64,000 nucleotides of DNA from an uncultured Bacteroidia bacterium (GCA_964517435.1 CAZFEC010000001.1:7518-71517), one strand, 5' to 3'; shown: positions 6,488 to 24,200, counted from the stretch's first letter. Numbers and translations are program-made. The notes: generated from the letters alone by a model not told the origin.

Positions 6488-9223
6488 CTAGTTATCGCGC
6501 GACTGCTCTTCGGCTCGCGTTTCGTTCGTCGCCGGCGAGCTTGAAACGGAGGATGGACTGCCGGTGCCGCCGCTGTACAACTGGCGCAGGATCGCTCTTA
6601 TCTCCTGCAGACGGCTGCTGACCAGATCGGAGAGGTCGGGCGACGCCTCCGCCTGGAGCGCGGTGTTGATTTCGCTCAGTATCGGTTGCAGGCGCTGCTC
6701 CAGGTTCAGGCCCATCCGGCGCAGCGCGCGATCGCGCGATTCGGCCAGTATCTGACGGTCGAACACATCCTCCAGCTGCACCAGAAAACGGCAGGCATCA
6801 GGCCGCTCGGCCGGAAAGGGGCTGATCTGCAGGCTGACTAAAGTGCGGGGCGCATTCCCTCCCGGTTCCAGCCAGAGGTCGTTCAGCTCAAACGGTTGTC
6901 CAGTGCGTACGCAGATCTGGAAGCCCTGGTGCAGCGGCGTATCACGCAACTGCGGGAATCCCTCGAACAATCCCGGCCCGTGCATCAAATCGGGCGGCGC
7001 GCCGAGCAGCTCCCGGGCCCGCCCGTTCACGTGCAGCACCCGGCCCGATTCATCGAGCAGCAGCAGTGCACTCGACACCTGCTGCAGCGAACGGCGGTTG
7101 AATTCTTCCAGGATCTGCAGCTGCTGGGCGTCCCAGGTGAGTTCGGCGCCGGTGCGATGCAGGATGTCCCGCAGGCTGGCCCGCTGTTGCGGTTCGATGT
7201 AGTGATCGGCCATTTCGTCTTCGAAGAAACGCAGGCGCCGGTTGAGCGCCTTATCGACGCTCTGCCGGATATCGGTCATCGCGAAGGGATGGACGATGTA
7301 GTCATCCGCACCCAGGCGGATCGCTTCCACCGCCGTCTGGATGGAGCCATAGTTGGTCAGTACGATCACCGGAATGGTGAGATCGACCGCCTTGATGCGT
7401 CGCACGAAATCGAGTCCCTTGATACCGGGCAGATGCAGGTTGGTGAGGGCCAGATCGCAGTTGCGCTTCTGCAGCGCCTGTAACGCCTCTTCGCCGCTGC
7501 CGTAAGCGGTCACCTCGTAACCCCAGTTTCTGAAGACATCTTCCAGCACGTCGCGCTGGTTGCTCTGGCTGTCGATGATAAAAATGCAGAAGCCGCGTTC
7601 CGTTGTCGCTGGATTCAGCTCCTCCACCTGGCGGCTCTCCAGGTCGCTGCTCTCCGCCGGGCTCGCCTCCACGCCGGTACAATCGATGAACTCGCCGGGC
7701 GGCGTCTGCGCGACTATCTGGCCGGGACCGCGGCGTTTGGCCTGCAGCAGTGCCTGGTCGGCCATCCGCACCAGGTCCCGCGCTTTATACTCGCCGGGAC
7801 ATTGCACGACCATCCCCAGCGACAGGGAAAGCGGGGCGTGGCTGCCGCCCAATTCCAGCTGTTTCACCCCCTGCCGGATGCGGTTGGCCACCAGTATCGC
7901 TCCGTTCAGGTCGGTATCGGGCAGGAGCAGTACGAACTCGTCGCCGCCGTACCGGCCGGCGCTGTCGATATCACGTAAGGATTCCTGCAGCAGGGCGGGG
8001 AGCATCTGCAACACCTGGTCGCCGGTCTGGTGGCCGTAGGTGTCATTGTAGACCTTGAAGAAATCGAGATCGAGCATGATCACTGCCAGGCAGCTGTTCA
8101 GACGCTGCGAACGAGTGATCTCCAGCTCCACCCGTTGCAGCCAGGTGTTGCGCGACATCAGGCCGGTGAGATCGTCGTAGTGGGCGCGACGCGTGTTCTG
8201 GCGGATCTCCAGCGCCTGCGCCAGCGCGATGGCCGCTTCCGTCGTCATCTGCATGATGCGGCGCATGTTGGCTTCGGTCAGCGCCGGTTCGCCGGGATTG
8301 AAGAGATGCAACCGGCCGATGATGCGATAACCGTAGAGCAGTGGAATCACGATCACCGATTTGAACTGCGGGATCCGGGCCAGGAAGTGGTAGGGATGAT
8401 CGGAGCCGAGCTCCCCGATGTTCTCGACCAGCGTGCCCCGCTCGCGGTGGAAGAATGAGTCGCCGCTGCTGCGTTTCAGGTTAACCACCAGCTGGTCGAG
8501 CACCTCCTCAACCAGACCGCGGGCGGCGAAAGTATCGTAACCGCGGTTGAAGTCCTGGAAGACTGTCAACAAGCCGAGATCGGTCTGCAGCAGCTTGAGC
8601 CCCAGGCTGAGCGTGAGGTCGACCAGTTTGTTGAAATCCCGGGTAGAGTTGAATACCCGGAGAGTGGTCACGGCTTCCGGTTGCGAGAAACCGGCGGCGC
8701 CTGGCTGTTCGCACCAGAGTTCGTCCGTCAGCAGCGCGGTCAGTTCCCGCAGGAGTGATTGCAGACGCTCGGCGGCGGGCAGACGCAGACGGCCCTGCCG
8801 GCAACCCGCGCACAACACCCCCCTGACCTCGCCGTCTCCCAGCGGCAGCAGGATGGCATCGGTCAGTTCAGGGCGAACCAGGGCGATGCCTTCCGGCAGC
8901 CTGCCGGCGGTCAGACGTAGAATATTCCCCTCGCGCACAACCTGGCCGGCGGCGCTTGTATCCAGCGGGCAGCGGGCAAAGCGTGTGATTTCTGCCGGCA
9001 GGCCGGTGGCGGTACAGAGGTGGAGGATCTGTTCCTCCCGGTCAAACCTGAGGAGGGAACCGGTCTGCGCGCCCAGCGTTTCCAGACAGAGATTCAACAG
9101 AAGATGGGTAAGTCGATCGTGGAGTTGAAACCGCTCTTCAAGACGGTCCCGTTCGATCAACCCTGTTTGTGGATCCCCCTGCTTTTGCCTGCTGTCGTCG
9201 TTTCCATTACACTTCTTCATCAC
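6488..9223 (-). CDS. Multidomain c-di-GMP signalling protein: GAF-GAF-GGDEF (diguanylate cyclase)-REC-PAS
   Basis: GGDEF domain with RYGGDEFVLLLPDTD; downstream receiver domain with the conserved Asp/Lys pattern (IDSQ...DLALTNLHLPGIKG...DDYIVHPF); GAF-like N-terminal modules and a PAS-like C-terminal region. Confidence 0.8.
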   Translation of the reverse strand: MMKKCNGNDDSRQKQGDPQTGLIERDRLEERFQLHDRLTHLLLNLCLETLGAQTGSLLRFDREEQILHLCTATGLPAEITRFARCPLDTSAAGQVVREGNILRLTAGRLPEGIALVRPELTDAILLPLGDGEVRGVLCAGCRQGRLRLPAAERLQSLLRELTALLTDELWCEQPGAAGFSQPEAVTTLRVFNSTRDFNKLVDLTLSLGLKLLQTDLGLLTVFQDFNRGYDTFAARGLVEEVLDQLVVNLKRSSGDSFFHRERGTLVENIGELGSDHPYHFLARIPQFKSVIVIPLLYGYRIIGRLHLFNPGEPALTEANMRRIMQMTTEAAIALAQALEIRQNTRRAHYDDLTGLMSRNTWLQRVELEITRSQRLNSCLAVIMLDLDFFKVYNDTYGHQTGDQVLQMLPALLQESLRDIDSAGRYGGDEFVLLLPDTDLNGAILVANRIRQGVKQLELGGSHAPLSLSLGMVVQCPGEYKARDLVRMADQALLQAKRRGPGQIVAQTPPGEFIDCTGVEASPAESSDLESRQVEELNPATTERGFCIFIIDSQSNQRDVLEDVFRNWGYEVTAYGSGEEALQALQKRNCDLALTNLHLPGIKGLDFVRRIKAVDLTIPVIVLTNYGSIQTAVEAIRLGADDYIVHPFAMTDIRQSVDKALNRRLRFFEDEMADHYIEPQQRASLRDILHRTGAELTWDAQQLQILEEFNRRSLQQVSSALLLLDESGRVLHVNGRARELLGAPPDLMHGPGLFEGFPQLRDTPLHQGFQICVRTGQPFELNDLWLEPGGNAPRTLVSLQISPFPAERPDACRFLVQLEDVFDRQILAESRDRALRRMGLNLEQRLQPILSEINTALQAEASPDLSDLVSSRLQEIRAILRQLYSGGTGSPSSVSSSPATNETRAEEQSRDN

Positions 9224-10601
9224 CTTTCTCTTTATCCCGGAATCCCAGTTTCATCATCTTCGAATAGAGGGTACCCCGGCTGATCTCCAGAATTTTGGAG
9301 GTCTTGGAGAGGTTCCAGTTCGTCTCATTCAGACAGTGCTCGATCAGAGCCCGCTCCGCTTCCTGCAGCGTGCGCGATTTCAACTGCAGCGTCAGTTCGT
9401 TGTGGTCGCGCTTATGCACCACCTCGCCGGAGAGATCGCTGAGGGAGATCTTGCGGCCTTCCGTCAGCACCACCGCCCGTTCCAGGACATTGCGCAACTC
9501 GCGGATGTTGCCCGGCCAATCGTAGTTCACCAGCGCGTTCATCGCCGATTTGCCGACGGCGTCGATCCGCTTCTTCGTCTCCTCGGCGAACTGGGAGAGG
9601 AAAAAATCGACCAGCAGCGGAATATCCTCGCGGCGCTGACGCAGCGGCGGCACATCTATCGGTATCACGTTGAGGCGATAGTAGAGGTCCTCCCGGAAGG
9701 TTTTGTCCCGGATCAGTTGCGGTAGGTCCTGGTGCGTCGCCGAAATCAGCCGCACGTCGACCTTGATGGACTCAGTGCCGCCCACCCGTTCGAATTCCTG
9801 TGTCTGCAGCACCCGCACCAGCTTGATCTGTGTATGCAGCGGGATGTCGCCGATCTCATCCAGGAAGAGGGTGCCGTCACTGGCCAGCTCGAAGCGGCCC
9901 TTGCGCTGGGAGACGGCGGATGTGAAAGCGCCTTTCTCGTGGCCGAACAGCTCCGACTCCAGGACCCCCTCGGAAAAGGAGGCGCAGGAGGTCTTGATGA
10001 AGGGCTGCGACGACCGGAAGCTGAAGTAATGTATCACATGCGCGAGCAGCTCCTTGCCGGTGCCGCTTTCGCCGGTCAGCAGAATGGAGGAGTTGCTTTT
10101 GGCGGCGGTCGCCACGTTGCGAAAGACGTCCTGGATGGCGGTGGAGTTGCCGATGATGCTGTCGAAGCCGTACTTGCGGCTGAGGTCGGGCAGGAAGAAG
10201 TTGCGGTCGAGAAAGACCTCTTTCTCGCTCTCGATGCGCCGGATGCTGCTCAGCGCTTCGTCCGGGTTGAAAGGCTTGAGGATGTAATCCCACGCTCCTT
10301 TGCGCATCGCCTCCACGGCGCCGTCGACGCTGCCGAAGCCGGTCAGGACGATCACCTTGATGGAAGGGTAGAGGTCATGGACCATGCTGAGCAGTTCCAT
10401 GCCACCGATGCCCGGCATCTTGAGGTCGGTGATCATCAGGTCGTAATTGCCGTTTTCCCGTTCCAGACGATCCAGCGCTTCCTGTCCGGTGGAGGCGGTG
10501 GCAACCTGGTAGCCCTCATCCCGCAGAACATCTCCCATCGACTCGAGCATGTTGATCTCATCATCGACCATTAAGATCTGAAGTTTGCTCTCAGATGACA
10601 T
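9207..10601 (-). CDS. Sigma-54-dependent response regulator (NtrC family: REC-AAA+-HTH)
   Basis: REC domain (MVDDEINM...DLMITDLKMPG), sigma-54 interaction AAA+ domain ([15 protein letters not shown]; GAFTSA motif present as GAFTSAVSQRKGRFELA) and a C-terminal Fis-type HTH. The start overlaps the upstream GGDEF gene by 17 nt. Confidence 0.9.
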   Translation of the reverse strand: MSSESKLQILMVDDEINMLESMGDVLRDEGYQVATASTGQEALDRLERENGNYDLMITDLKMPGIGGMELLSMVHDLYPSIKVIVLTGFGSVDGAVEAMRKGAWDYILKPFNPDEALSSIRRIESEKEVFLDRNFFLPDLSRKYGFDSIIGNSTAIQDVFRNVATAAKSNSSILLTGESGTGKELLAHVIHYFSFRSSQPFIKTSCASFSEGVLESELFGHEKGAFTSAVSQRKGRFELASDGTLFLDEIGDIPLHTQIKLVRVLQTQEFERVGGTESIKVDVRLISATHQDLPQLIRDKTFREDLYYRLNVIPIDVPPLRQRREDIPLLVDFFLSQFAEETKKRIDAVGKSAMNALVNYDWPGNIRELRNVLERAVVLTEGRKISLSDLSGEVVHKRDHNELTLQLKSRTLQEAERALIEHCLNETNWNLSKTSKILEISRGTLYSKMMKLGFRDKEKGDEEV

Positions 10602-10614
10602 GCATTACTCCTGG

Positions 10615-13278
10615 CTATTTGAACGGAATCTTGACGGTGACGACGGTTCCCTTATCCAGCTCGCTGTCGATATGGAGGCTGCCGCCGGTACGTTGAATGA
10701 TTGTATGGGTGAGGGAAAGGCCGAGGCCGGTCCCCTCGCCGGGTGATTTCGTGGTAAAAAACGGATTGAAAACGCTGCTGATCTCTTCCGGCGAGATGCC
10801 GACGCCGGTGTCGCCGAACTTGATATTGACCATGCTGTCGACGACGCTGGTCGAGATGGAGAGCGTGCCGCCGCTCGGCATCGCCTGGGTGGAATTGAGG
10901 ATGATGTTGAGAAACGCCTGTTTCAGCTGGTCCAGGTTCAACATCAGCGGCTTGAGCCGGGCGAAATCGGTTTCGAGGGAAATGTCATTGACCAGCAGCT
11001 CTTTCTGCACCAGGTCGAGCGTATTCTGCAGCAGCTGGTTGATGTCGACCGGTTCCACCTCCGCTTTGGAGATGCGGGAGAAGCTGAGCAGGTTCTCGAT
11101 GATGCGGCGGGAACGCTCCACCTCCGACTTGATGATGCCCAGATGCTTGCGGATGCTGTCGTTGAAGTTGAGTTCGTCCCGTTCCACACAGCTGTTGATG
11201 TAGTAAAGCGAGGAGTTGATGATCCCAAGCGGGTTGCGCAGCTCATGCGCTACGCCCGCGGACAGCTGTCCCAGCCCCGCCAGCTTCTGGCTCTGGATGA
11301 CGGAAAACTCCATCCGCTGCCGCTCGCTGATGTCGCGGTAGAAACTCTGCAGTACCTGCCGCCCCTGGAACTGGGTGACCAGGGCATCATACTCCACCAG
11401 GATCTTGCGACCCTCGGCATGCAGAATCGGAATGTTGTCGTACTTGCCGGCACCGCTCTTCACCGCCTCCTTGAAATTGCGTATCGCCGCATCCCGGTAG
11501 TCATCCGGACGCAGGTCCCAGATACACATCGCCAGCATCTGCTCCCGTGAATAGCCGAACAGCTCCAGCGTGTGCTGGTTGACATCGACGATGCGGCCTT
11601 CCTTCACGTCGGTGAGGATGATGGCGTGGCGGGAGTTATCGAACAGGTTCCGGTAGTTCTGTTCCGTCTGCAGGATCTCGCGGCGCAGCTCCACCTCTTC
11701 AAGGTAGGCGGCGATCTGACCGGCGAAGAGACTGAGCAGATCGATCAGAGCCGAATCCGGCATCAGGCGCCCGCGGGGGTGGTCCAGCAGCAGGAAACCG
11801 GCCGTCTTCCGCGGCTGCCGCAGCGGCAGCACCAGGTGGTGCTGATCGGTCCAGATGAAGTCAGCCAGCGGCACCAGGCCCTCCCGTTCGTGTATCACGA
11901 AGGCGTCCTTTTGCCGGCCGCTGCTCTCAGCGATCTGCAACAGTTGCGGAAGGTTGATGTTCTTGAGCAGCAGGTCCAGTTCTTCCTCGCCGAGACCGGC
12001 GGCATAACGCTCGCGGATGCCGTCCTCGTCGCGCAGCAGGATGACGGCCCGCTGAAAGGAATGGGACTGGACGATTTTGGCGGCGATCACGCGCAGTTTG
12101 TCGTGGGAGGTATCTTCCTCCTGCATCAGGCTGGTGGTATCGACGATCATCGAGAGCTTCTGGCGCGTGAAGGCCAGCTCGCTGCGCTGCCGTTCGATCT
12201 CCGTTTCCAGATCCTTGCGGTAGCTGACGTCGTCGATCTCCATTGCGAAGATCTTCCCATCTTCGGTACGCTTGAACTGGATATCGGCCCAGAAGGAGTC
12301 GTGATCGGGCAACAGGATGCGCGCGTGGAGTGCATCCTCCAGCTGTTCCTCGACGGCGACGGCGGTCAGGTGCCGGGTTTCATCGCCCAGCAGATGGGTC
12401 AATGGTTGACCGATCAGCTCCGCCGGTTGGAGGTCCACCAGCTGTGCCGTCTGTGGCGACACGAAGCGGATCCGGTAGTCGGCGTCGACATGGAGCACGA
12501 GTTTACGGTGAGAATGCCGGGCCGCGACCTCCCCCTCCAGCGGCAGGGAGGTGGGGAGGGTCGACAGGGTGGTGGCGGGCGTGAACCAGGCGGAAAAAAG
12601 CTCTTCCTCCGGGTGGAAGCTGAAATTGCAGATCCATTCTCCGTCGCCGCTCCCCGGGGGCGGCACAACCAGAATAGTGCCGCCGTTCTGCGTCGCAACC
12701 AGCTCGGACCAGTCATCCTGCAGGGGCGGCAAGCTGGTGAAGAGATTGTCGGCTTCTTCCGGCAGCATTTGCCGCAACGCGGGTGAGCACTCCCAGATGT
12801 CACCCGCCTCATTGAAGACCGCCGCCAGCCCCCAGTGGTTGAGCATCACGCCGGTCGCCGTCTTCTCCACTTCACCCTGGTTGCGGACATTGGTCACCAG
12901 TTGAAAACGGGCTTCCGCTTTCTGCAGCGAGGTCTTGAGCACCTCCAGCAGGAACGGTTTCTGCAGGAAATCGACCGCGCCGCAGCGCAGGGCCTGCAGC
13001 ACCGATTCCATGGTGCCGTACCCGGTGGCGACGATGATCTGGATGATGGGGTATTGCTTCTGGAGGATGTCGATAACATCGATACCGGAAATGCCCGGCA
13101 TGTTGAGATCGGTAATGACCAGATCGATCGGCAGGTTGTCCTTCAACATCTGGACCGCCTTCATCCCGTCGCTGGCGGTTTCGACATGATAGCCTTCGCT
13201 GGTCAGGAATTCGGAGAGGACGTGACGGGCATCGGCTTCGTCATCGATAACCAGCACATTCTTCAGATGCGGCATCAA
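10615..13278 (-). CDS. Hybrid sensor histidine kinase (N-terminal REC, PAS/GAF sensor modules, HisKA, HATPase_c)
   Basis: N-terminal receiver (VIDDEADARHV...DLVITDLNMPG), central PAS/GAF region, H-box AHELRNPLGII, and G-box GTGLGLSLTHTII. The TTG at 13278 is in frame with an ATG at 13275, which is preceded by a GGGAGCAGG ribosome-binding site. Confidence 0.85.
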   Translation of the reverse strand: MMPHLKNVLVIDDEADARHVLSEFLTSEGYHVETASDGMKAVQMLKDNLPIDLVITDLNMPGISGIDVIDILQKQYPIIQIIVATGYGTMESVLQALRCGAVDFLQKPFLLEVLKTSLQKAEARFQLVTNVRNQGEVEKTATGVMLNHWGLAAVFNEAGDIWECSPALRQMLPEEADNLFTSLPPLQDDWSELVATQNGGTILVVPPPGSGDGEWICNFSFHPEEELFSAWFTPATTLSTLPTSLPLEGEVAARHSHRKLVLHVDADYRIRFVSPQTAQLVDLQPAELIGQPLTHLLGDETRHLTAVAVEEQLEDALHARILLPDHDSFWADIQFKRTEDGKIFAMEIDDVSYRKDLETEIERQRSELAFTRQKLSMIVDTTSLMQEEDTSHDKLRVIAAKIVQSHSFQRAVILLRDEDGIRERYAAGLGEEELDLLLKNINLPQLLQIAESSGRQKDAFVIHEREGLVPLADFIWTDQHHLVLPLRQPRKTAGFLLLDHPRGRLMPDSALIDLLSLFAGQIAAYLEEVELRREILQTEQNYRNLFDNSRHAIILTDVKEGRIVDVNQHTLELFGYSREQMLAMCIWDLRPDDYRDAAIRNFKEAVKSGAGKYDNIPILHAEGRKILVEYDALVTQFQGRQVLQSFYRDISERQRMEFSVIQSQKLAGLGQLSAGVAHELRNPLGIINSSLYYINSCVERDELNFNDSIRKHLGIIKSEVERSRRIIENLLSFSRISKAEVEPVDINQLLQNTLDLVQKELLVNDISLETDFARLKPLMLNLDQLKQAFLNIILNSTQAMPSGGTLSISTSVVDSMVNIKFGDTGVGISPEEISSVFNPFFTTKSPGEGTGLGLSLTHTIIQRTGGSLHIDSELDKGTVVTVKIPFK

Positions 13279-13301
13279 CCTGCTCCCTCAAGTGTGCAGA
13301 A

Positions 13302-13330
13302 AATATACACCGGCGTGCGAGAGTTGACAA
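13302..13330 (-). promoter_or_regulatory. Sigma-70-type promoter for the kinase/EBP/GGDEF operon
   Basis: On the minus strand: TTGTCA (13330..13325), a 17-nt spacer, then TATATT (13307..13302), about 30 nt upstream of the RBS and start codon. Upstream direct repeats CGACAACTTG (13331..13340 and 13370..13379) and the imperfect palindrome ACAAC-ttgcc-GTTGT look like regulator sites. Confidence 0.4.
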
Positions 13331-13684
13331 CGACAACTTGCCGTTGTGTTCAATTTCCGACAGAAGTATCGACAACTTGAGTGCCGGAATTTAGACAATC
13401 GGAGAGATTATATAAGAAATAGTCTGGGAATATAGTGATGCTCACCTGAAATGTCCGTTTGAAACACCAATAGGAAGCATCACTTGTACGACCGAAGAGC
13501 TGGTGGTGATGCAAAAACTACCTACTGAGGTCTGCGGTCGCTTCAGGTTAGTATTTCCCGAAACAGGTAGCCTGTTCAGACATTTGAGCTGGGAAATACA
13601 ATAGATGGATGCGTACTGAGGTAAGGCGGTTACATTTGGAAACGCAAAGCCGGATGGGTATTGTGACTGTAAAAAGGAGCCGCA

Positions 13685-15136
13685 GTGACAGCCAAGATCA
13701 TCGTTGTATCCGCATATGCCCTGATGATAATCGTGGTTGGTTATCTCGGTTTGCGGCGCACCCGCACCTTCAACGACTTCTTTCTGGGCGGTGGCAACAT
13801 CGGTCCCTGGATGACGGCGTTCACCTATGGAACCGCTTATTTCTCCGCCGTACTGTTCATCGGTTTCGCCGGCAAGGTGGGTTGGGGATTCGGTCTGGCC
13901 GGTCTCTGGATTGCCGTCGGTAACACCCTGGTCGGCGTACTGGGCGTCTGGTGGTTGATCGGCCCCCGCGTCAAGCGGATGGCCACGGAATACGAAGTCA
14001 CCACGATGTCTGAATTTTTCGAACGACGCTATGGGAGCCGCTTTTTCAAACTGCTGGCGGCGATCATCATCTTCGTATTCTTCGTTCCCTATTCCGCGGC
14101 GGTCTTCATGGGGCTCTCCTATCTCTTCACCGCCAACTTCGGGATCGGCTACAGCGCCGCGCTGCTCTTCATGGGCGGCTTCACCGCCGTCTATCTGGTG
14201 ATGGGGGGCTACAAGTCGATGGCGATGATCGACGTCATCTTCGGTATGATCATGTGCGCCGGCGTACTCCTGCTGCTGGGCAGCGTCCTGCAGGCGGGGG
14301 GCGGTTACAATCAGCTGCTGACCGACCTGCGCGCTGTCGATCCGCGACTCACCGGTTGGACCGGACCTCCCGGTTTCTGGCCACTGTTCAGTCTGGTCTT
14401 CCTGACCAGCGTGGCGCCGTTCGCCATGCCGCAACTGGTGCAGAAATTCTACGCCGTCCGCGACCGCCGGGCCATCCGCACCGGTATGATCGCTTCCACG
14501 CTGTTCGCCCTGCTGATCGGCGGTATCGGTTACTTCACCGGCGCTACCATCCGCGTCTTTCTCACACCGGAAGGCAATCCGGCTGCTTTTGAAGCCGGCC
14601 GGCCGTTGTTCGACGCCCTGATGCCGGAGCTGATCGCCACGGTGATACCTCCCTATCTCAGCATCCTTATCCTCCTGTTGATTCTCTCCGCTTCCATGTC
14701 GACCCTCGCGGCGCTGGTGTTGATCTCCAGCTCCGCCCTGACACGGGACTTCTATGCCGGGTTCATCAATCCCGCCGTCAGCGACAGCCGGTTGACCCTG
14801 CTGATGCGGCTGGCCAGCGCCGGTTTCATTCTGCTTTCCGTCCTGCTGGCCTACTACCGTCCCGATACGATCGTCACCATTCTGGGCATCTCCTGGGGCG
14901 CTATCGGGTCGGCATTTCTCGGACCATTTCTCTGGGGTCTGTTCACCCGCTTCAGCAATCGGACCGGCGCCCTGAGCGGCGCGCTGCTGTCGCTGGCGGT
15001 CTGCCTGCTGCTCTACTTCCGCGGGCTCTCCTCGCCGGAGGCGGGTACGATCGGGATGATGGTCTCGCTCGTTTCGGTACCGGTGATAAGCCTGCTCACT
15101 ACCGCCAGAAGGGTGAAGAAAGAGGATCTCTCGTAA
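13685..15136 (+). CDS. Sodium:solute symporter family (SSS/SSF) transporter
   Basis: About 13 TM helices; the N-terminal region has the SSF pattern (VGYLGLRRTRTFNDFFLGGGNIGPWMTAFTYGTAYFSAV). The antisense 582-aa track ORF is spurious. Confidence 0.85.
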   Translation: MTAKIIVVSAYALMIIVVGYLGLRRTRTFNDFFLGGGNIGPWMTAFTYGTAYFSAVLFIGFAGKVGWGFGLAGLWIAVGNTLVGVLGVWWLIGPRVKRMATEYEVTTMSEFFERRYGSRFFKLLAAIIIFVFFVPYSAAVFMGLSYLFTANFGIGYSAALLFMGGFTAVYLVMGGYKSMAMIDVIFGMIMCAGVLLLLGSVLQAGGGYNQLLTDLRAVDPRLTGWTGPPGFWPLFSLVFLTSVAPFAMPQLVQKFYAVRDRRAIRTGMIASTLFALLIGGIGYFTGATIRVFLTPEGNPAAFEAGRPLFDALMPELIATVIPPYLSILILLLILSASMSTLAALVLISSSALTRDFYAGFINPAVSDSRLTLLMRLASAGFILLSVLLAYYRPDTIVTILGISWGAIGSAFLGPFLWGLFTRFSNRTGALSGALLSLAVCLLLYFRGLSSPEAGTIGMMVSLVSVPVISLLTTARRVKKEDLS

Positions 15137-15323
15137 AGCACGCAGAGAAGAGTTTATTGTTAACAGCGATGTTGGCGTATTTTCAGTCAAGCTGTTATCC
15201 CGTAAGTACCATAAATCGAATTCTGCGTTCTTAGCGATCTTTGCGAGAGGATTTCTTCTTCATTGCCTCTTCGTCTACTCCTTTTATATTTCTGCTCCCC
15301 GAATCAAAATCAAGGAGCTGGCA

Positions 15324-17291
15324 ATGCCTCAGAATCTGATAGAGAAAATAGTTCAGCGTTTCGCCGTGGGTCTGGCGGATGGTCAACTGGTACACAGCGG
15401 CGACTACCTTTCCCTGCGTCCGGCGCATGTGCTGACTCATGACAATACCGGCGCGGTCATCCCGAAGTTCCGCTCCATCGGTGCCGCCCGCATGGCGAAT
15501 CCCCGCCAGCCGGTTTTCGCCCTCGACCACAATGTGCAGGACGACGGTGAAGCCAACCTGGCCAAATACGAACGCATCGCCGCTTTTGCCTCCGAAATGG
15601 GCGTCGATTTTTATCCGGCCGGCCGCGGTATCGGCCACCAGATCATGTGCGAAGAGGGCTACGCCTGGCCCGGCACGATGGTGGTCGCCTCCGACAGCCA
15701 TTCCAACATGTACGGCGGTCTGGGCTGCCTCGGCACGCCTATCGTGCGTACCGACGCCGCGGCGATCTGGGCGACCGGACGCACCTGGTGGCAGATCCCA
15801 CCGGTGGCGCGCGTCAAGTTGCGCGGTCGTCTCACCGGCTGTGCCAGCGGTAAGGATGTGATTCTGGCGCTCTGTGGCCTGTTCAACGAGGACCAGGTGC
15901 TGAACCAGGCGCTGGAGTTCACCGGTGAAGGGCTGGCGGATCTCTCGCTCGAACAACGGCTGACCATCGCCAACATGACGACGGAGTGGGGCACCCTGGC
16001 GGGGATCTTCCCGGTCGACGCGGTGACGCTCAACTGGTTACGGGAACGGATTGAAGCCGTGGCGATGCGTGGTCCGGCGGGCGTTCCTTCCGACGCGGAT
16101 AATCCCGACGCGCATCCCCGGCTGAACCGCCGGCACCTGGAAGAGCTGGCGGCGGATCGTCTGGAGGCGGATCCGGACGCGGTCTACACGCAGGAGCTGG
16201 AGCTGGATCTGGCTTCGGTCCGGCCGCTGGTGGCGGGACCGCACCATGTGAAAACCGTAACACCGGTCGCGGCTTTCAGCGCGGAGCGGGTGAAGATCAA
16301 CAAAGCCTATCTCGTCTCCTGCGTCAACAGTCGGGGAGAGGATATCGTCGCCGCCGCTGACAAGATACGCGGCAAACAGGTTGCGCCCGGTGTCGAATTC
16401 TACATTGCAGCCGCCTCCGACGAAATTCAGGCGGCGGCTGAACTGAGCGGTGACTGGCAGGCCCTGCTGGACGCCGGCGCCATCGCCCTGCCGCCGGGGT
16501 GCGGCCCCTGTATTGGTCTGGGCCGGGGCCTGCTGGGTCCGGACGAAGTCGGTATTTCCGCTACCAACCGCAACTTCAAGGGCCGCATGGGCGATGCTTC
16601 CGCGCTGGCTTACCTGGCCTCGCCGGCTGTAGTGGCGGCTTCCGCCGCCGCCGGTTACATCGACTGTCCGGACGCAGAGAGCGGCGAACCACAGGGTGAG
16701 ATCCGCAGGTTCGAACCGCCCACAGCCGCTGCCGACGCGACGGAGCTGCTGCCGAACTTCCCGGTCAGAATCGATGCCGAGCTGCTTTTCTGTCCGCAGG
16801 ACAACCTCAACACCGACGGGATCTACCCCGGCAAGTATACCTACCAGGACGACATCACCCCGGAGCAACAGGCGGAGGTGGTGATGGAGAACTACGATCC
16901 CGCCTTCGGGCAGACGGTGAAGACCGGCGACATCCTGGTCGGCGGTTTCAACTTCGGTACCGGCAGTTCGCGTGAACAGGCCGCCACGGCCCTCAAGCAT
17001 CGCGGCATCCGTCTTGTAATCGCCGGCTCCTTCAGCGAGACCTACAAACGTAACGCGCTCAATAACGGACTGCTCGTTATCGAAGCGCCGCGGCTGGTGG
17101 CCGACCTGAAGGAACGCTGCGGCGAAGAGCAGCTGACGCTGCGCACCGGTCTGAGCGCGCGGGTCGACTTCCAGCGCGCCCTGATCGAAGTTGAGGAGGA
17201 CGTATACCCCTTCGCGGCGGTAGGCGTGGCGGCGCAGGAGTTGATCCTCCTGGGCGGACTGGAAAACTGGGTGAAAGAAAAACTGGATTGA
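15324..17291 (+). CDS. Aconitase-family Fe-S hydro-lyase with fused large (LeuC-like) and small (LeuD-like swivel) subunits
   Basis: Aconitase-family cluster-ligand motifs VASDSHSNMYGG, SCVNSRGEDI and GCGPCIGLG. The C-terminal LeuD-like swivel domain has GDILVGGFNFGTGSSREQAA. Substrate is not assignable from sequence. Confidence 0.8.
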   Translation: MPQNLIEKIVQRFAVGLADGQLVHSGDYLSLRPAHVLTHDNTGAVIPKFRSIGAARMANPRQPVFALDHNVQDDGEANLAKYERIAAFASEMGVDFYPAGRGIGHQIMCEEGYAWPGTMVVASDSHSNMYGGLGCLGTPIVRTDAAAIWATGRTWWQIPPVARVKLRGRLTGCASGKDVILALCGLFNEDQVLNQALEFTGEGLADLSLEQRLTIANMTTEWGTLAGIFPVDAVTLNWLRERIEAVAMRGPAGVPSDADNPDAHPRLNRRHLEELAADRLEADPDAVYTQELELDLASVRPLVAGPHHVKTVTPVAAFSAERVKINKAYLVSCVNSRGEDIVAAADKIRGKQVAPGVEFYIAAASDEIQAAAELSGDWQALLDAGAIALPPGCGPCIGLGRGLLGPDEVGISATNRNFKGRMGDASALAYLASPAVVAASAAAGYIDCPDAESGEPQGEIRRFEPPTAAADATELLPNFPVRIDAELLFCPQDNLNTDGIYPGKYTYQDDITPEQQAEVVMENYDPAFGQTVKTGDILVGGFNFGTGSSREQAATALKHRGIRLVIAGSFSETYKRNALNNGLLVIEAPRLVADLKERCGEEQLTLRTGLSARVDFQRALIEVEEDVYPFAAVGVAAQELILLGGLENWVKEKLD

Positions 17292-17324
17292 CGATTACAT
17301 CGAATTAACGCAGAGGACTATAGA

Positions 17325-18692
17325 ATGGAAAAGTCGATTTCTAGGAAGATGGCTGAGTTCGCGGTGGCGTTGAAGTATGAAGATCTGCCGTCCGCGGTGG
17401 TTGCAGAGGTCAAGCGTTATCTCTACGATTCCATTGGTTGCGCCTACGGTTCGATGGGCACCAGTGATGTCGGTATCATGCACCGGATTCTGGGGGAGAT
17501 GGGTGGCGCGCCGGAGGCGACCATTATCGGTTTCGGCGATAAATTGCCGGTGGTGAATGCGACGTTGCTGAACTCGCTGATGATCCGCGCCCTCGACTAC
17601 AACGACATCTACTGGAAGGAAGATCCCTCCCATCCCTCCGATATCATTCCGGCAGCGCTCTGCACCGGGGAGAAGGTGGGCGCCGACATGCAGGCGGTCA
17701 TCACTGCGATCGTGCTGGCCTATGAGTTCGAGCAGCGCCTCTGTGAATTCGCCAAGCCGGGCGTCCGGGAGCGCAAATGGCATCACGCCACCCTGACGCA
17801 GTTCGTCTCGCCGCTGGTGGCCGGCAAAATGCTGGGGCTGACAGTCGACCAGCTGGTGAATGCGATCGGCATCAACGGATCGCACAACCACACCATCGGC
17901 TGTCCCACAGCGGGCAAGCTGACCATGATGAAGAACACCGTCGATCCGATGGCGGTGCAGAGCGGGGTTTTCGCCGCCCTGATGGCCCAGCAGGGCTACA
18001 GCGGTACGGAACAGGTCTTCGAGGGCAAAGAGGGATTCATGGATGTCTTCGGACCCGACTGGGACACCAGCCTGCTCACCGAGGGATTGGGGGACGATTA
18101 CCGCATTCTGCAATGCAGCATGAAGGCCTTCCCGACCGAGGCGCTGACGCACACTCACCTGACCGCCACCCTCAAAGTGATCTGCGATCACGACATCGCG
18201 CCGGAGGATATCGAGGAAGTGCGGGTAACGACCATCGCCCGGGCGGTGGACATTCTATTCGATCCCCAGAAGTACCGTCCAGAGTCGCGGGAGACCGCCG
18301 ATCATTCGCTGCCGTACTGCCTGGCGGCGGCTATCGTCGATCGCCAGATCACTACCGCATCCTTCTCCGATGCCAAGCTGAAGGATGAGCGGATCTGGCA
18401 GGTCATCGACCGCATCAAGGGTGAGGCTTCGGTCGAGTTCGAGCAGATGTTCCCCGCCAAGCAGCCCTCGCGGGTGGTGATCCGGACTATGGACGGCGCG
18501 GAGCATGAACAGTATCTCGAGTATCCCAAGGGGGACCCGCGCGAACCGATGACCCTGGAAGACCTGGAGCAGAAGTTCAACGCCCTGGCGGACGAGCACT
18601 TCGATCCTGAACGCCTGCGGCGCCTGAAGGAGACAATCTTCGACTGTGATACGCTGACGGTCGCTGACTTCATGGCAGAGCTGGTTAAATAG
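17325..18692 (+). CDS. MmgE/PrpD-family protein (2-methylcitrate dehydratase / cis-aconitate decarboxylase superfamily)
   Basis: Full-length (455 aa) match to the MmgE/PrpD fold (LYDSIGCAYGS, LDYNDIYW, SDIIPAALCTGEK). It lies 33 nt downstream of the aconitase-family gene on the same strand. Confidence 0.85.
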   Translation: MEKSISRKMAEFAVALKYEDLPSAVVAEVKRYLYDSIGCAYGSMGTSDVGIMHRILGEMGGAPEATIIGFGDKLPVVNATLLNSLMIRALDYNDIYWKEDPSHPSDIIPAALCTGEKVGADMQAVITAIVLAYEFEQRLCEFAKPGVRERKWHHATLTQFVSPLVAGKMLGLTVDQLVNAIGINGSHNHTIGCPTAGKLTMMKNTVDPMAVQSGVFAALMAQQGYSGTEQVFEGKEGFMDVFGPDWDTSLLTEGLGDDYRILQCSMKAFPTEALTHTHLTATLKVICDHDIAPEDIEEVRVTTIARAVDILFDPQKYRPESRETADHSLPYCLAAAIVDRQITTASFSDAKLKDERIWQVIDRIKGEASVEFEQMFPAKQPSRVVIRTMDGAEHEQYLEYPKGDPREPMTLEDLEQKFNALADEHFDPERLRRLKETIFDCDTLTVADFMAELVK

Positions 18693-18749: not shown

Positions 18750-19502
18750 TTGACCAGGCAATCGATTACCGACATAATCTGCGGCCGCAACGCCGTGCGG
18801 GAGGCTCTGCAGACCGGCACACCGTGTGAGCGGCTGCTGGTGCAGAAGGGCGCTCAATCCGCACCGGTAAAGGTGATTCTCAGCCTGGCGCGGGAGTCGC
18901 AGCTACCGGTCGAATACCTGCCGGCGGCCGCGCTGAAACGTATCACACAGGTAAACTCTCACCAGGGCGTCGCCCTCCAGATCGCCGCCGCGCCGTATTA
19001 TCCCTCCGAGCAGCTCTCCGAGCTGTGCGAGCAGCCGGGACTGCTGCTCTACCTGGACCGGATTCAGGACCCGCAGAATCTGGGCGCCATCCTGCGCTCC
19101 GCCTGTGCCTACGGCGTGCGCGCCGTTATGCTGCCGTTTCGCAAGGCGGTCGGTCTGACCGCCACTGTCGTCAAGGTCAGTCAGGGGGCCGCCCTCCAGC
19201 TGCCTGTGATACGCCTGCGTTCGCCGCTAACCCGGCTGGCGGAGTTGCGTGACGCCGGTTACCGGCTCTACGGTCTGGACAGCCGCGGCTCCGTTCAGTT
19301 GCCACAGGCGTCATTTCCTTCCCGTTGTGTACTGCTGCTGGGCAGCGAAAGCAGCGGCCTCTCCACGCAGCTGAAGAACCTCTGTGATACACTTCTCACC
19401 ATTCCGATGCCGGGCGGCTTCGAGTCGTTGAATGTTTCCGCCGCGGCGGCGATCGCGCTTTATGAATACGCCCGTCAAGCCGGAGGATCCGCGGATGAAT
19501 GA
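18750..19502 (+). CDS. rlmB: 23S rRNA (guanosine-2'-O)-methyltransferase, SpoU/TrmH family (RlmB-like)
   Basis: N-terminal L30e-like substrate-binding region followed by the SPOUT fold (LYLDRIQDPQNLGAILRSACAYGV; LLLGSESSGLS; ESLNVSAAAAIALYE). Confidence 0.8.
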   Translation: MTRQSITDIICGRNAVREALQTGTPCERLLVQKGAQSAPVKVILSLARESQLPVEYLPAAALKRITQVNSHQGVALQIAAAPYYPSEQLSELCEQPGLLLYLDRIQDPQNLGAILRSACAYGVRAVMLPFRKAVGLTATVVKVSQGAALQLPVIRLRSPLTRLAELRDAGYRLYGLDSRGSVQLPQASFPSRCVLLLGSESSGLSTQLKNLCDTLLTIPMPGGFESLNVSAAAAIALYEYARQAGGSADE

Positions 19503-20277
19503 AGAGCGCCTCTTAGCCGGGTTGCTGGAGATCATGGATCGTCTGCGCGATCCCGGCGGTTGTCCCTGGGACCAGGAGCAGAACATTCACACTTTACGGG
19601 TTTATCTGCTGGAGGAGGTCTACGAGCTAGTAGACGCCATGGACGACGAGAACTGGCCGGTCCTGAAGGAGGAGCTGGGCGATCTGCTCTTCCACATCGT
19701 CTTTCAGACCCGCCTGGCCAAGGAGCTGGGACACTTCACCATGCGGGACGTGATACAAAACATATCGGAGAAGATCACCCGCCGCCACCCGCATGTCTTC
19801 AGCGAGGGTCGCAAACTGGATACTCCCGCCCAGGTTGAAAACCAGTGGGAGTCGCTCAAACTGCGCGAGGGAAAGCGTTCGGTGCTGGGCGGCGTGCCGC
19901 GCAGCCTTTCCGCGCTGGTGCGGGCGTATCGCGTGCAGGAAAAAGCCGCCAGCGTCGGCTTCGAGTGGGATGATGTCGAGGGTGCCGTCGACAAGCTGGA
20001 CGAGGAATACCACGAGTTCCGCGAACGCCTGGAAGAGGCTGACCGCAGCGGCATGCAGGAGGAGATGGGGGATTTCCTCTTCTCGCTGGTTAATGTATCA
20101 CGCTACCTCGGGTTGACACCGGAGGACGCGCTGCGCACGACGGTCAACAAGTTCATCACCCGCTTTCAATATATCGAAAGTAAACTGGCGGAGCGGAACC
20201 AGACCCCCGCCGACGCCTCCCTGTCGGAGATGGACGCGCTGTGGGAGGAAGCCAAGCGCGATCCGCATACCGGCTGA
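19495..20277 (+). CDS. mazG: Nucleoside triphosphate pyrophosphohydrolase MazG
   Basis: Tandem MazG domains (LLEEVYELVDAMD...ELGDLLF; second copy EEMGDFLFSLVNVSRYLGL). The ATG at 19495 overlaps the rlmB stop. Confidence 0.85.
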   Translation: MNEERLLAGLLEIMDRLRDPGGCPWDQEQNIHTLRVYLLEEVYELVDAMDDENWPVLKEELGDLLFHIVFQTRLAKELGHFTMRDVIQNISEKITRRHPHVFSEGRKLDTPAQVENQWESLKLREGKRSVLGGVPRSLSALVRAYRVQEKAASVGFEWDDVEGAVDKLDEEYHEFRERLEEADRSGMQEEMGDFLFSLVNVSRYLGLTPEDALRTTVNKFITRFQYIESKLAERNQTPADASLSEMDALWEEAKRDPHTG

Positions 20278-21298: not shown

Positions 21299-24200
21299 AT
21301 GCGTAAACTCATCACCGGATTCATGATTCTGCTGACCGCCTCTTGGGCTATGGCGCTTAACCCGGGCGACCTGGTCGTCAACGAGATCATGCAGAATCCC
21401 GCCGCCGTCGCTGATTCGGATGGCGAGTGGTTTGAGGTTTACAACGCAACCGAACTAACCGTCAATCTGAATGGATTGGTTTTCACAGAAGATGCCTTCG
21501 GCAATATCTTCACAGTCGGAAGTGATGTTCTTATCGACGCCGGTGGCTATGCATTGCTGGCTCGGAATGCCGATCCGCTGGTAAATGGTGGTCTGCCTAC
21601 CGTCGACTATGTGTATCCCGGTGGTTATTATCTGGGTAACAGCTCTGACGAAGTTATCATCCTGGAGATCGTCGGTATCGATACCACTGTCATCGATGAA
21701 GTCTGGTACGACAACGGCGCCACCTTCCCCGATCCCAACGGCGCCAGCATGGCTTTGCTCAGCGTTGACCTGGACAACAACGTCGGTGCCAACTGGTACG
21801 AGGAATCGACCTTTACCTATGGTGACGGCGACTACGGTACTCCCGGCGCCGCCAACCAGCAGGAAGGTTTCCCGCTCATCACCGATGTTTCGCAGGTTCC
21901 CGGTGCTCCGGGCAGCAGCGATGATGTCGACATCACCGCGACCGTCACCGATCCGGCCACCCGAACGGTAGCCAACGTCGATCTCATCTATGATGTAGAT
22001 GGAGCGCCCGCTGTCATCGTCGACATGACTCCCGCTGGCGATATCTACAGCGGCACCATTCCGGCTCAGATTGCCGGCTCCGTCGTCACCTGGCGCATCG
22101 AAGCCACCGATGATGAGGATAACACCTCCTTCTTCGGACCGGTTGTCTACACCGTGGTGGATGTTCCGCTTTACAGCATCTACGATATCCAGTACTCAAC
22201 CGATCCCGATTACCCATCCCCCTATGAAGGGCAAATGGTACAGGTCACCGGTATCGTGACCGCCATCGGCCTCTCCGGCGACGGCAGCTTCTTCCTGCAG
22301 GATGACGAAGCCCCCTGGTGCGGTATCCAGATTTACGGCAACAACGACGGCGTCGCTATCGACGACTCGGTGACCGTCACAGGTATAGTCGAGGAGTATT
22401 ACACCCAGACCGAGCTGCACATCTACGGTTCGGATGTATTCACCATCCACTCCAGTGGCCACACTCCGGTGGAACCGCTGCTGGTTCCGGTCGGCACCGC
22501 TTACACTGAGCCTTACGAATCGGTACTGGTCCGGGTTGAGAATACCACCTGTGTCAGTCTGCCCGATGGCTACGGCGAGTGGGAAATCAGCGATGGCGTG
22601 GACACTGGTCTTGTCGATGACTGGTTCGTCAGCTTCACCCCGACTCTGGAACAGTGCTACGACATTCAGGGTCTGGTTTACTTCTACTATAACTACAAGA
22701 TCTGCCCACGCGACCTGAGCGAGATCACCATCTGCGGCGGCGGCAATCTGCCACCCACCATCACCGACGTCGCGCATGTACCGTTACTCCCGACCAGCGT
22801 CGATATCGTGACCGTCAGCGCGACGGTTACCGATGATGTCGGCGTCGCCAGTGTGGTGCTGAACTACAGTGTGGGCGGCGGCGGTTACGTACCAGTAGCC
22901 ATGACCCCCGGCATTGACGACCTCTACAGCGGTGACATACCGGCACAGGTTGACGGTTCGCATGTGGACTATTACCTCGTCGCCACCGACACGCCCGATG
23001 GGGATACAACTACCAGCGACATCGGATTCTATGATGTCATCGATGTCTACACCTGCGAAGACATCTCCAACATCCGTGTCGTTGACGTGGACGGCGTGCC
23101 GGTGATGGAAGGTCAAGCGGTGATGGTCTGCGGTGTGCTGACCGTCGCCCATGAATTCGGCTCCAGCGGCCCCGGCTATCTGGTTCATGAAACCGGTTCC
23201 GTAGCTTTCCACGGCGGCGTTTTCGGTGATGATACCAGTTTAATTATTGGCGACGAAGTCGAGGTTATCGGTATCGTCGGCGCTTATAACGGCCTGACCC
23301 AGATCCAGGATCCGCCGGTAGTCAACTTCATCGGCCATGTCGGTCCGCCCACTCCCACTGTCGTCACCCTGGCCACACTCGGTGCCGGCGGTGAAGCCTG
23401 GGAAGCGCAGCTGGTAACGGTAGAAGGTGTTACCCTGGTCGATCCGGAGAACTGGCCGGCTGAAGGGGATTACGCCACCGTGATCCTGCAACAGGGCGTC
23501 GATACTTATGACATGTACATTGACCGCGACACCAATATCGACGGTTCAATTGCGCCTACCGGCACCTTCAATGTAACCGGAGTCATCGGCCAGTACGACA
23601 CGACACTGCCTTGGACTGAAGGCTACAACATCTCTCCGCGTATGCTCGATGACGTCGGCGGCGGCGGCGAGCCTCCGGTCGTGACGATCTACGACATCCA
23701 GTACACCACAGATCCCTCCGGCGATTCACCGCTGGCCGGGCAGATGGTTACCACCAGCGGCATCGTCTACGCCGTCTCAGGCGCCGGTTTCTTCATCCAG
23801 GATGACGACGCCACCTGGTCCGGCATCCAGGTCTTCGGCGCCAACAACCAGATTGTGGTTGGTGATGAGGTCACGGTAACCGGCCAGGTTGTCGAGTACT
23901 ACAACTTCACCGAGCTGACCATCAGTGATTCCACCGCTTACACCATCCTGACGAGCGGCAATCCGCTCTATCCTGTAGCGCTGGGAACGATTCCGGCTAT
24001 CTATGTCGAGGACTACGAAGGTGTGTTCGTCGGTGTCCAGAATGTTACCTGCTCAAACATTGATCTGGGATACGGCGAATGGGAAATCACCGACGGTACC
24101 AACCTGGGTGTTGTCAACGACCTGATGTACGCCTATGTGCCAGTACTGGATGAGTGCTTCGACCTGGTACAGGGTGCTCTCACTTACGGTTTCGGTGCTT

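Follow-up and report, generated by a model that had tools for sequence, protein, structure and literature searches.

A 64,000-bp stretch of DNA from an uncultured Bacteroidia bacterium (GCA_964517435.1, CAZFEC010000001.1:7518-71517) was analysed and is referred to below as the window, with positions counted from its first base. At 13685-18692 it carries three consecutive genes encoding a sodium:solute symporter, a protein of the aconitase family (ACN), and a protein of the MmgE/PrpD superfamily (PrpD-like). On sequence grounds, ACN was assigned with good confidence to the Lys4/LysF-type homoaconitases as an orthologue-level relative of fungal Lys4. The reading that we slightly favour is that the two enzymes together isomerise homocitrate to homoisocitrate in lysine biosynthesis via alpha-aminoadipate (AAA), with ACN as the homoaconitase and PrpD-like as a candidate homocitrate dehydratase. 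The features of the segment are the following:

13685-15136, plus strand: sodium:solute symporter gene, 483 aa, GTG start; Pfam SSF domain
15137-15323, plus strand: spacer between the symporter and homoaconitase genes, with a weak sigma-70-like match at 15263-15290
15324-17291, plus strand: predicted Lys4/LysF-type homoaconitase gene (ACN), 655 aa; Pfam Aconitase and Aconitase_C domains
17325-18692, plus strand: MmgE/PrpD-superfamily gene (PrpD-like), 455 aa; Pfam MmgE_PrpD_N and MmgE_PrpD_C domains

Gene calling done independently on identical metagenome contigs gave the same three genes. The coordinates given for these open reading frames in an initial annotation, made from the sequence alone, were exact, and matching Pfam domains were found for its symporter, aconitase-family, and MmgE/PrpD assignments. 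The symporter and ACN genes are separated by 187 bp, and the start codon ATG of ACN follows an AGGAG ribosome-binding site. Only 33 bp lie between the ACN stop codon and the PrpD-like start, and these two genes are probably co-transcribed.

Putative homoaconitase and PrpD-like protein

Against the NCBIfam models, ACN scored 848.8 bits with the homoaconitase equivalog TIGR00139 (cut-off 529.9). The next-best model, PRK07229 for aconitate hydratase, reached 353 bits against a cut-off of 612, and all aconitase models remained under their cut-offs (353/612, 177/825, 148/686, and 92/782 bits/cut-off), as did the LeuC/LeuD models (TIGR00170, 161 vs 560; TIGR02084, 90 vs 246) and those for HacA/B. 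Lys4p of Saccharomyces cerevisiae, retrieved with a query sequence 99% identical to it, shared 53% identity with ACN end to end over 686 aligned columns (683 bits). In a multiple alignment of 13 bacterial and 5 fungal sequences, the identity of ACN to the five fungal Lys4 proteins, including the yeast one, was 55-57%. The matches to solved structures were weaker, namely HacA of Methanocaldococcus jannaschii (226 bits), the large subunit of isopropylmalate isomerase (IPMI; 197 bits), and mitochondrial aconitase (165 bits).

The swivel-domain loop determines substrate specificity in the aconitase family, as known from the methanogen enzymes. In ACN, the loop residues P502-G-K-Y-T-Y507 and D509 are invariant across the alignment and the same as in fungal Lys4; the common motif is DN(L/I)NTDGI(Y/F)PGKYTY, and ACN reads GKYTYQDD. 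The corresponding loop is YLRT in methanogen HacB and YLVY in the IPMI small subunit (YLVY or YLVM among IPMI enzymes). The catalytic residues D124-S125-H126 are likewise invariant. The intact Fe-S ligand motifs noticed earlier, SCVNS and GCGPCIG, are present, with the cysteines C333, C393, and C396 invariant in all 18 sequences. ACN had initially been described as a fused LeuC-LeuD. The fused architecture was borne out; the family was not, as the protein exceeds the TIGR00139 cut-off as a Lys4-type homoaconitase, falls below the LeuC/LeuD cut-offs, and has the loop YTYQ rather than the hydrophobic YLVY/YLVM.

Like fungal Lys4/LysF (EC 4.2.1.36), ACN is a single polypeptide in which aconitase domains 1-3 are fused to the swivel domain, and it shares with these enzymes a full-length identity of 53-57%, the three Fe-S cysteines, the PGKYTY loop, and a TIGR00139 score above cut-off. 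It differs from them in being bacterial and without a mitochondrial presequence, in a 14-15-residue insertion of the bacterial enzymes (RGPAGVPSDADNPDA; residues ~248-262 of ACN) that the fungal ones lack, and in the PrpD-family gene adjoining its own, a partner without counterpart in fungi, which rely on aconitase. It also differs from the enzyme of the Thermus/archaeal AAA pathway. There, homoaconitase consists of two subunits (HacAB = LysT/LysU), whereas the window enzyme is of the fused fungal type, scores 226 bits with M. jannaschii HacA vs 683 with Lys4, has YTYQ in place of YLRT, and is accompanied by an extra PrpD-family gene. The predicted reaction of ACN is the interconversion of cis-homoaconitate and homoisocitrate. 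With ACN, a known enzyme family gains a new bacterial member, already named homoaconitase by the NCBI pipeline.

Characterised Lys4p and LysF act on homoaconitate/homoisocitrate and show no activity on homocitrate, and the Thermus homoaconitase behaves alike; in fungi, the first half-reaction, homocitrate dehydration, is performed by aconitase (Aco1/Aco2/AcoA) (PMC3556520).

The PrpD-like protein matched PF03972 with 234 bits and PF19305 with 150 bits, both above the gathering thresholds. All PrpD equivalog models were under their cut-offs (NF006943, 81 vs 575; TIGR02330, 61 vs 458; NF042438, 66 vs 950), and the score with Escherichia coli PrpD was 57 bits. The closest solved relatives, at 83-93 bits, were IDS-epimerase, Bacillus subtilis IRG1, and cis-aconitate decarboxylases (CAD). 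Twenty homologues from Zixibacteria, Ignavibacteria, Bacteroidota, and other groups were 73-83% identical, with a mean column identity of 85%, and identity across the best 80 genome loci was 68-77%. Outside this group, the nearest among 1.8 billion cluster representatives were 55, 50, 46, and 44% identical, followed by clusters at 30-35%. The clusters looked up (37-55% identity) consisted of automatically labelled environmental proteins and one protein from a Bathyarchaeia metagenome-assembled genome (MAG); no named or eukaryotic relative was present among them. By these comparisons, PrpD-like belongs to a separate, compact, and highly conserved clade far from true PrpD. The initial view that neither enzyme is a canonical LeuCD or PrpD is upheld by the LeuC, LeuD, and PrpD scores; ACN did not group with LeuCD, and the second protein was not a canonical PrpD beside prpBC.

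The PrpD-like protein was also compared with the set of eight residues of human CAD. H103, H159, K207, K272, and H277 of CAD correspond to H103, H153, K203, K267, and H276 of PrpD-like, which are conserved; most of these occur superfamily-wide and so do not discriminate between functions. PrpD-like appears to have the usual carboxylate-binding active site of the superfamily, whose residues do not indicate the type of reaction. Although CAD/IRG1 and IDS-epimerase are its best PDB matches, they are distant, and its partners (homoaconitase and an enzyme resembling homoisocitrate dehydrogenase, HICDH) suggest hydro-lyase chemistry on a C7 tricarboxylate, not decarboxylation or epimerisation. Public entries label members of the clade '2-methylcitrate dehydratase' or 'MmgE/PrpD family protein'. 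The literature searches returned no PrpD-family protein tied to homocitrate or the AAA pathway and no homoaconitase in these phyla. By analogy, the clade is a candidate homocitrate <-> cis-homoaconitate dehydratase acting as the partner of homoaconitase, a proposal that we regard as evenly balanced.

Conservation of the enzyme pair

When one genome per species was scanned, at least 560 species proved to encode the PrpD-like protein. The best 80 loci were examined together with metagenome loci, and the neighbourhood counts refer to 83 non-redundant loci from genomes and metagenomes. ACN lies upstream of PrpD-like on the same strand in about 72 of them, and the lineages with the pair include Zixibacteria, Ignavibacteria, Melioribacteraceae (Melioribacter), and Marinimicrobia/Fidelibacterota. 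The conserved unit is the pair of enzymes, ACN and PrpD-like; its recurrence in several phyla supports the functional pairing proposed initially. The commonest architectures were dehydrogenase-small protein-ACN-PrpD-CitDE-CitF (29 loci), small protein-ACN-PrpD (19 loci), and ACN-PrpD (11 loci).

The small protein, of 177 aa, is encoded directly upstream of ACN in 55/83 loci (e.g., L074:6988-7521 and L091:9461-9994); it had no significant Pfam or PDB match and showed a faint HD-domain resemblance only. A gene of the isocitrate/homoisocitrate dehydrogenase family (Iso_dh) is present in the cluster in 36/83 loci. Its closest solved relative is HICDH of Thermus thermophilus (249 bits), followed by small NAD-dependent isocitrate dehydrogenases (IDHs); no NCBIfam cut-off was reached and the specificity loop is ambiguous, so that a C6 or C7 substrate is not readable from it. 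A CitD-CitE fusion is encoded in 41/83 loci and CitF in 38/83. The window contains no lyase, dehydrogenase, or 177-aa protein gene of these kinds. Across 86 loci, no homologue of citrate or methylcitrate synthase turned up at a distance of up to 10 kb from the pair, the window had none either, and no annotated neighbourhood of the pair contained a gene of the phosphoenolpyruvate mutase family. The absence of prpB- and prpC-like genes nearby is as initially described.

The dehydrogenase, the 177-aa protein, ACN, PrpD-like, the CitD-CitE fusion, and CitF constitute a six-gene module, which occurs in two gene orders in Ignavibacteria, Melioribacteraceae, Fidelibacterota, and other MAGs (e.g., L089:5892-14279, L091:6605-14533, L018, and L074). 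In a complete Fidelibacterota genome, the order is CitDE-CitF-small protein-ACN-dehydrogenase-PrpD. The gene order of the module mirrors the order of a pathway from lyase through PrpD-like and homoaconitase to dehydrogenase.

Pathway assignment

In the favoured reading, PrpD-like would dehydrate (R)-homocitrate to cis-homoaconitate without an Fe-S cluster, the Lys4-type [4Fe-4S] homoaconitase would, by orthology, interconvert cis-homoaconitate and homoisocitrate, and a HICDH-like dehydrogenase, encoded in related loci only, would complete the route to 2-oxoadipate. The first step was proposed for PrpD-like because Lys4-type enzymes cannot dehydrate homocitrate, because the two genes are nearly always adjacent and probably co-transcribed, and because PrpD combined with an aconitase has a precedent in the methylcitrate cycle, where PrpD hands 2-methyl-cis-aconitate to aconitase. 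The analogy with this chemistry, already drawn in the initial annotation, is held as the best available model. The proposed likeness is that a cluster-free dehydratase produces an analogue of cis-aconitate, to which an enzyme of the aconitase family then adds water again, and the superfamily fold domains are shared with PrpD. Unlike PrpD of the methylcitrate cycle, PrpD-like scores under every PrpD cut-off, is paired in the window with a homoaconitase and not with AcnB/AcnA, lies apart from any prpB or prpC, and would act on homocitrate instead of 2-methylcitrate.

The gene content of Melioribacter roseus is consistent with this assignment. Its list includes MROS_2218 (citrate lyase beta), MROS_2219 (MmgE/PrpD), MROS_2220 (homoaconitase), and MROS_2223, labelled '3-isopropylmalate dehydrogenase'; separate enzymes are aconitate hydratase (MROS_1507) and NADP-IDH (MROS_1410), both present in the proteome, and LeuC (MROS_0234), located in a leu/ilv cluster; MROS_0161-0166 comprise LysJ-, LysZ-, and LysY-like genes, LysX, and a gene of the isopropylmalate/homocitrate synthase family (PMC5492636 Table S2). 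MROS_2218-2223 are arranged as in the MAG locus of M. roseus (L059), and MROS_0161-0166 have the gene content of a Thermus-type AAA late pathway with homocitrate synthase (HCS). Because this species has a separate aconitase, NADP-IDH, and LeuC, aconitase and leucine roles were ruled out for the pair.

In the proteome of the same species, MROS_2219, MROS_2220, and MROS_2223 were detected in 3/3 maltose-fermentation and 0/3 aerobic-acetate replicates, the LysJ-like aminotransferase MROS_0161 only in maltose-fermenting cells, and the LysX-, LysZ-, and LysY-like proteins in both conditions (PMC5492636 Table S2). Detection in fermenting cells only may reflect oxygen sensitivity, regulation, or merely a shallower aerobic data set; the proteome shows expression and co-detection of the cluster proteins, not regulation. 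No enzyme specific to the diaminopimelate (DAP) pathway was among the detected proteins, a weak negative that covers the proteome only. Caldithrix abyssi has an Hcs and LysWXZYJ locus in which the homoaconitase and HICDH steps were left unassigned (PMC5317091), and Calditrichia MAGs encode both ACN and PrpD-like proteins. The co-occurrence of HCS, HICDH, and the late genes in one genome is seen in M. roseus and partly in C. abyssi. The Thermus/archaeal pathway is matched in its logic, in the LysX-type late genes and HCS-like gene of these two species, and in the closest relationship of the related-cluster dehydrogenase to T. thermophilus HICDH. For the organism of the window, the AAA role, including its biosynthetic direction, is extrapolated from such relatives.

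Several observations weigh against a biosynthetic AAA role. In 86 loci, no gene for homocitrate synthase, LysX, or LysW was found in the 10 kb on either side of the pair, and none of them was found in the 64-kb window or the 5-10 kb flanks; the search for the synthase and RimK/LysX used E. coli LeuA, GltA, and RimK sequences as queries. Homocitrate is dehydrated by the ordinary aconitase in fungi and, in vitro, in Thermus, and M. roseus possesses such an enzyme, so that a dedicated dehydratase is not strictly required. Ignavibacterium album was reported without a complete lysine pathway, yet it has the citrate-lyase-like genes by which the cluster is flanked in related organisms. A citrate-lyase-like CitD/E-CitF complex is encoded in the same operon in 41 loci, which a purely biosynthetic role leaves unexplained. 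At the active site, Y318 of CAD aligns with a Phe (F312) that is invariant in the PrpD-like clade, a further difference of the clade from the decarboxylases.

The lyase genes could instead belong to a reversible or catabolic chain-shortening route, in which 2-oxoadipate, derived from lysine or aminoadipate degradation, would undergo reductive carboxylation to homoisocitrate and be converted through cis-homoaconitate to homocitrate, which the lyase would cleave to acetate and 2-oxoglutarate; in the reverse sense, homocitrate would be made from acetate with no need for acetyl-CoA. This alternative, which we hold to be unlikely, draws on the six-gene clusters with their two orders in several lineages. 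Their CitD-CitE fusion and CitF give full-length model matches to citrate lyase CitDEF, a system of the related loci and not of the window, but all three parts are under the equivalog cut-offs (CitE, 300 vs 443; CitD, 52 vs 63.5; CitF, 496 vs 501). They also differ from citrate lyase in sharing an operon with homoaconitase, PrpD-like, and HICDH-like genes, and the loci read showed no adjacent citC, citG, or citX. Calditrichota keep the PrpD-like gene beside CitDE, with ACN elsewhere, and an acetyl-CoA synthetase gene lies near the cluster in about 9 loci. In I. album, reported as a lysine auxotroph, the lyase genes IALB_1146/1147 are retained; the genome paper annotated them as citrate lyase, which the authors speculated closes the reverse tricarboxylic acid (TCA) cycle. 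Against chain shortening, the window and the Zixibacteria-type loci have the pair without lyase or dehydrogenase within 10 kb, the HCS-like gene by LysX in M. roseus makes biosynthetic use sufficient, and the direction of flux is not readable from sequence. To our knowledge, no homocitrate lyase has ever been described. It is a tentative suggestion that the six-gene module of the FCB group, with a dedicated homocitrate dehydratase, might be self-contained and interconvert acetate and 2-oxoglutarate with 2-oxoadipate and CO2. That such a module would serve either as a 'homocitrate lyase' route of lysine/2-oxoadipate catabolism, with the upper part of the AAA pathway reversed, or for CoA-independent homocitrate synthesis is similarly doubtful.

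The occurrence of citrate-lyase-like and IDH-family genes in the same operon in many loci would also suit a two-enzyme aconitase, with PrpD-like interconverting citrate and cis-aconitate and the Lys4-like protein cis-aconitate and isocitrate in a segment of the TCA or reverse TCA cycle. The NCBIfam model NF006943 labels E. coli PrpD a bifunctional 2-methylcitrate dehydratase/aconitate hydratase, LysF of Aspergillus fumigatus turns over isocitrate and citrate at measurable rates (PMC3556520 Table 1), and the reverse-TCA speculation of the I. album authors points the same way. We consider this arrangement quite improbable. The M. roseus proteome contains the separate aconitate hydratase MROS_1507 and NADP-IDH MROS_1410, C. 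abyssi lists a COG1048 aconitase and a monomeric IDH, the ACN loop is that of the homoaconitate-specific fungal Lys4, every aconitase model is under its cut-off, and a standard aconitase needs no partner. A split aconitase was rejected on the separate aconitase and IDH in the M. roseus gene list.

Symporter, regulators and implications

Upstream of the symporter gene, three signalling genes were identified by Pfam domains:

6488-9223, minus strand: gene for a GGDEF/receiver protein (GAF-GGDEF-receiver-PAS)
9207-10601, minus strand: sigma-54 activator gene
10615-13278, minus strand: hybrid kinase gene (N-terminal receiver, GAF, and PAS domains)

The initial annotation placed the three plus-strand genes directly downstream of this operon and read the whole as an inducible module, with a dedicated importer and sensor/activator control, for the uptake and the catabolism or isomerisation of a substituted dicarboxylate or tricarboxylate, for example one of the itaconate, citramalate, or methylaconitate type. 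The signalling operon is on the minus strand and diverges from the enzyme genes across a 406-bp spacer. The -24/-12 motif (TGGCAC-N5-TTGCW, one mismatch allowed) had no match in 13279-13684 or 15137-15323; in the rest of the window it matched five times, as often as expected by chance. No riboswitch or other Rfam element was found upstream of the symporter and ACN genes. The spacer at 15137-15323 may be the pair's own promoter region; its sigma-70-like match is weak, and promoters of the FCB group may deviate from the sigma-70 consensus used.

The symporter exceeded the Pfam SSF threshold only and was under all equivalog cut-offs (PutP, 180/516; PanF, 163/328; MctP, 47/625; ActP, 28-34/750-1099). 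Its gene adjoins the pair in a single lineage, that of the window organism itself (represented by the window's contigs and by contig P0006), and neither it nor the kinase or activator gene was a neighbour of the pair in any of the 80 genome loci or in metagenome loci of other lineages. Synteny in the window lineage runs GGDEF protein-activator-kinase and then, divergently, ACN-PrpD-RlmB-MazG and onward to a lamin-tail-domain protein; the three signalling genes keep their order in both close relatives with readable contigs. One close relative (80% PrpD-like identity) has the symporter. In the other, a non-coding spacer of 866 bp (L092:5142-6006) stands in its place with no gene remnant, although this relative is otherwise syntenic, including rlmB and mazG, with the activator 90%, PrpD-like 83%, and ACN 76% identical. 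Because it is never a neighbour elsewhere and is absent from a close syntenic relative, the transporter was placed outside the conserved unit, as a lineage-variable insertion whose presence or absence is polymorphic between close relatives. The regulators are merely syntenic with the pair, alongside housekeeping genes, and this synteny reflects shared ancestry, not function.

The inducible uptake-catabolism module is very improbable in this light. In its favour are the common strand of the symporter and enzyme genes with their short gaps, the recurrence of the arrangement in one relative, and the CADs among the nearest solved relatives of PrpD-like. The neighbourhood comparison, which the initial annotation had itself suggested, found the enzyme pair conserved and the symporter and regulators not, which leaves the dedicated importer unsupported; the divergent strand, lineage-wide synteny only, and lack of a -24/-12 motif speak against control by the kinase and activator. 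The hydratase is a predicted homoaconitase orthologue, with 53-57% identity to the fungal enzymes and their substrate loop, and the M. roseus cluster coexists with lysine genes of the LysX/HCS type and with separate aconitase, IDH, and LeuC, both of which count against the catabolic substrates proposed. A replacement of LeuCD in leucine or isoleucine (citramalate) synthesis, or a PrpD/Acn pair of the methylcitrate cycle, can hardly apply despite the LeuC and LeuD domain architecture and the superfamily of the second protein, given that the LeuC, LeuD, and PrpD models are far under their cut-offs, that M. roseus has its separate LeuC in the leu/ilv cluster, that I. album is without leu/ilv and DAP genes while relatives retain the cluster, and that none of the loci has a PrpC/GltA-like gene at a distance of 10 kb or less. 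The LeuCD candidate was rejected on the separate LeuC in the M. roseus gene list.

Downstream of the pair, the longest open reading frames of the rlmB-like and mazG-like genes (18750-20277) overlap by 71 bp (19432-19502); public gene calls differ on the starts of both, so the annotated starts are uncertain. Further downstream are a 1051-aa lamin-tail-domain protein (21299-24454), whose position is kept in close relatives, and an LVIVD-repeat protein (24683-26188). Both are probably cell-surface proteins with no relation to the enzyme pair.

It is a long-standing question which enzyme of the AAA pathway converts homocitrate to cis-homoaconitate; fungal and Thermus homoaconitases cannot perform this step, and in the literature searched no in-vivo homocitrate-dehydrating enzyme has been assigned in bacteria. 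The PrpD-like gene beside a fungal-type homoaconitase gene in hundreds of FCB-group species offers a concrete and cheaply testable candidate. If the proposed role is true, it would be a third solution to homocitrate dehydration, after the bifunctional archaeal HACN and fungal aconitase, and would define a new variant of the AAA pathway, itself known. It would also correct the systematic use of the labels '2-methylcitrate dehydratase', 'Aconitase A', and '3-isopropylmalate dehydratase' for these proteins, which skews the metabolism reconstructed for Zixibacteria, Ignavibacteria, Calditrichota, and Marinimicrobia, for instance where lysine auxotrophy is called or a 'complete TCA cycle' claimed. 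The bacterial and fungal Lys4 proteins share 53-57% identity, which is of interest for how the lysine pathway of fungi arose and suggests that fungal LYS4 has a bacterial (FCB-group) connection.

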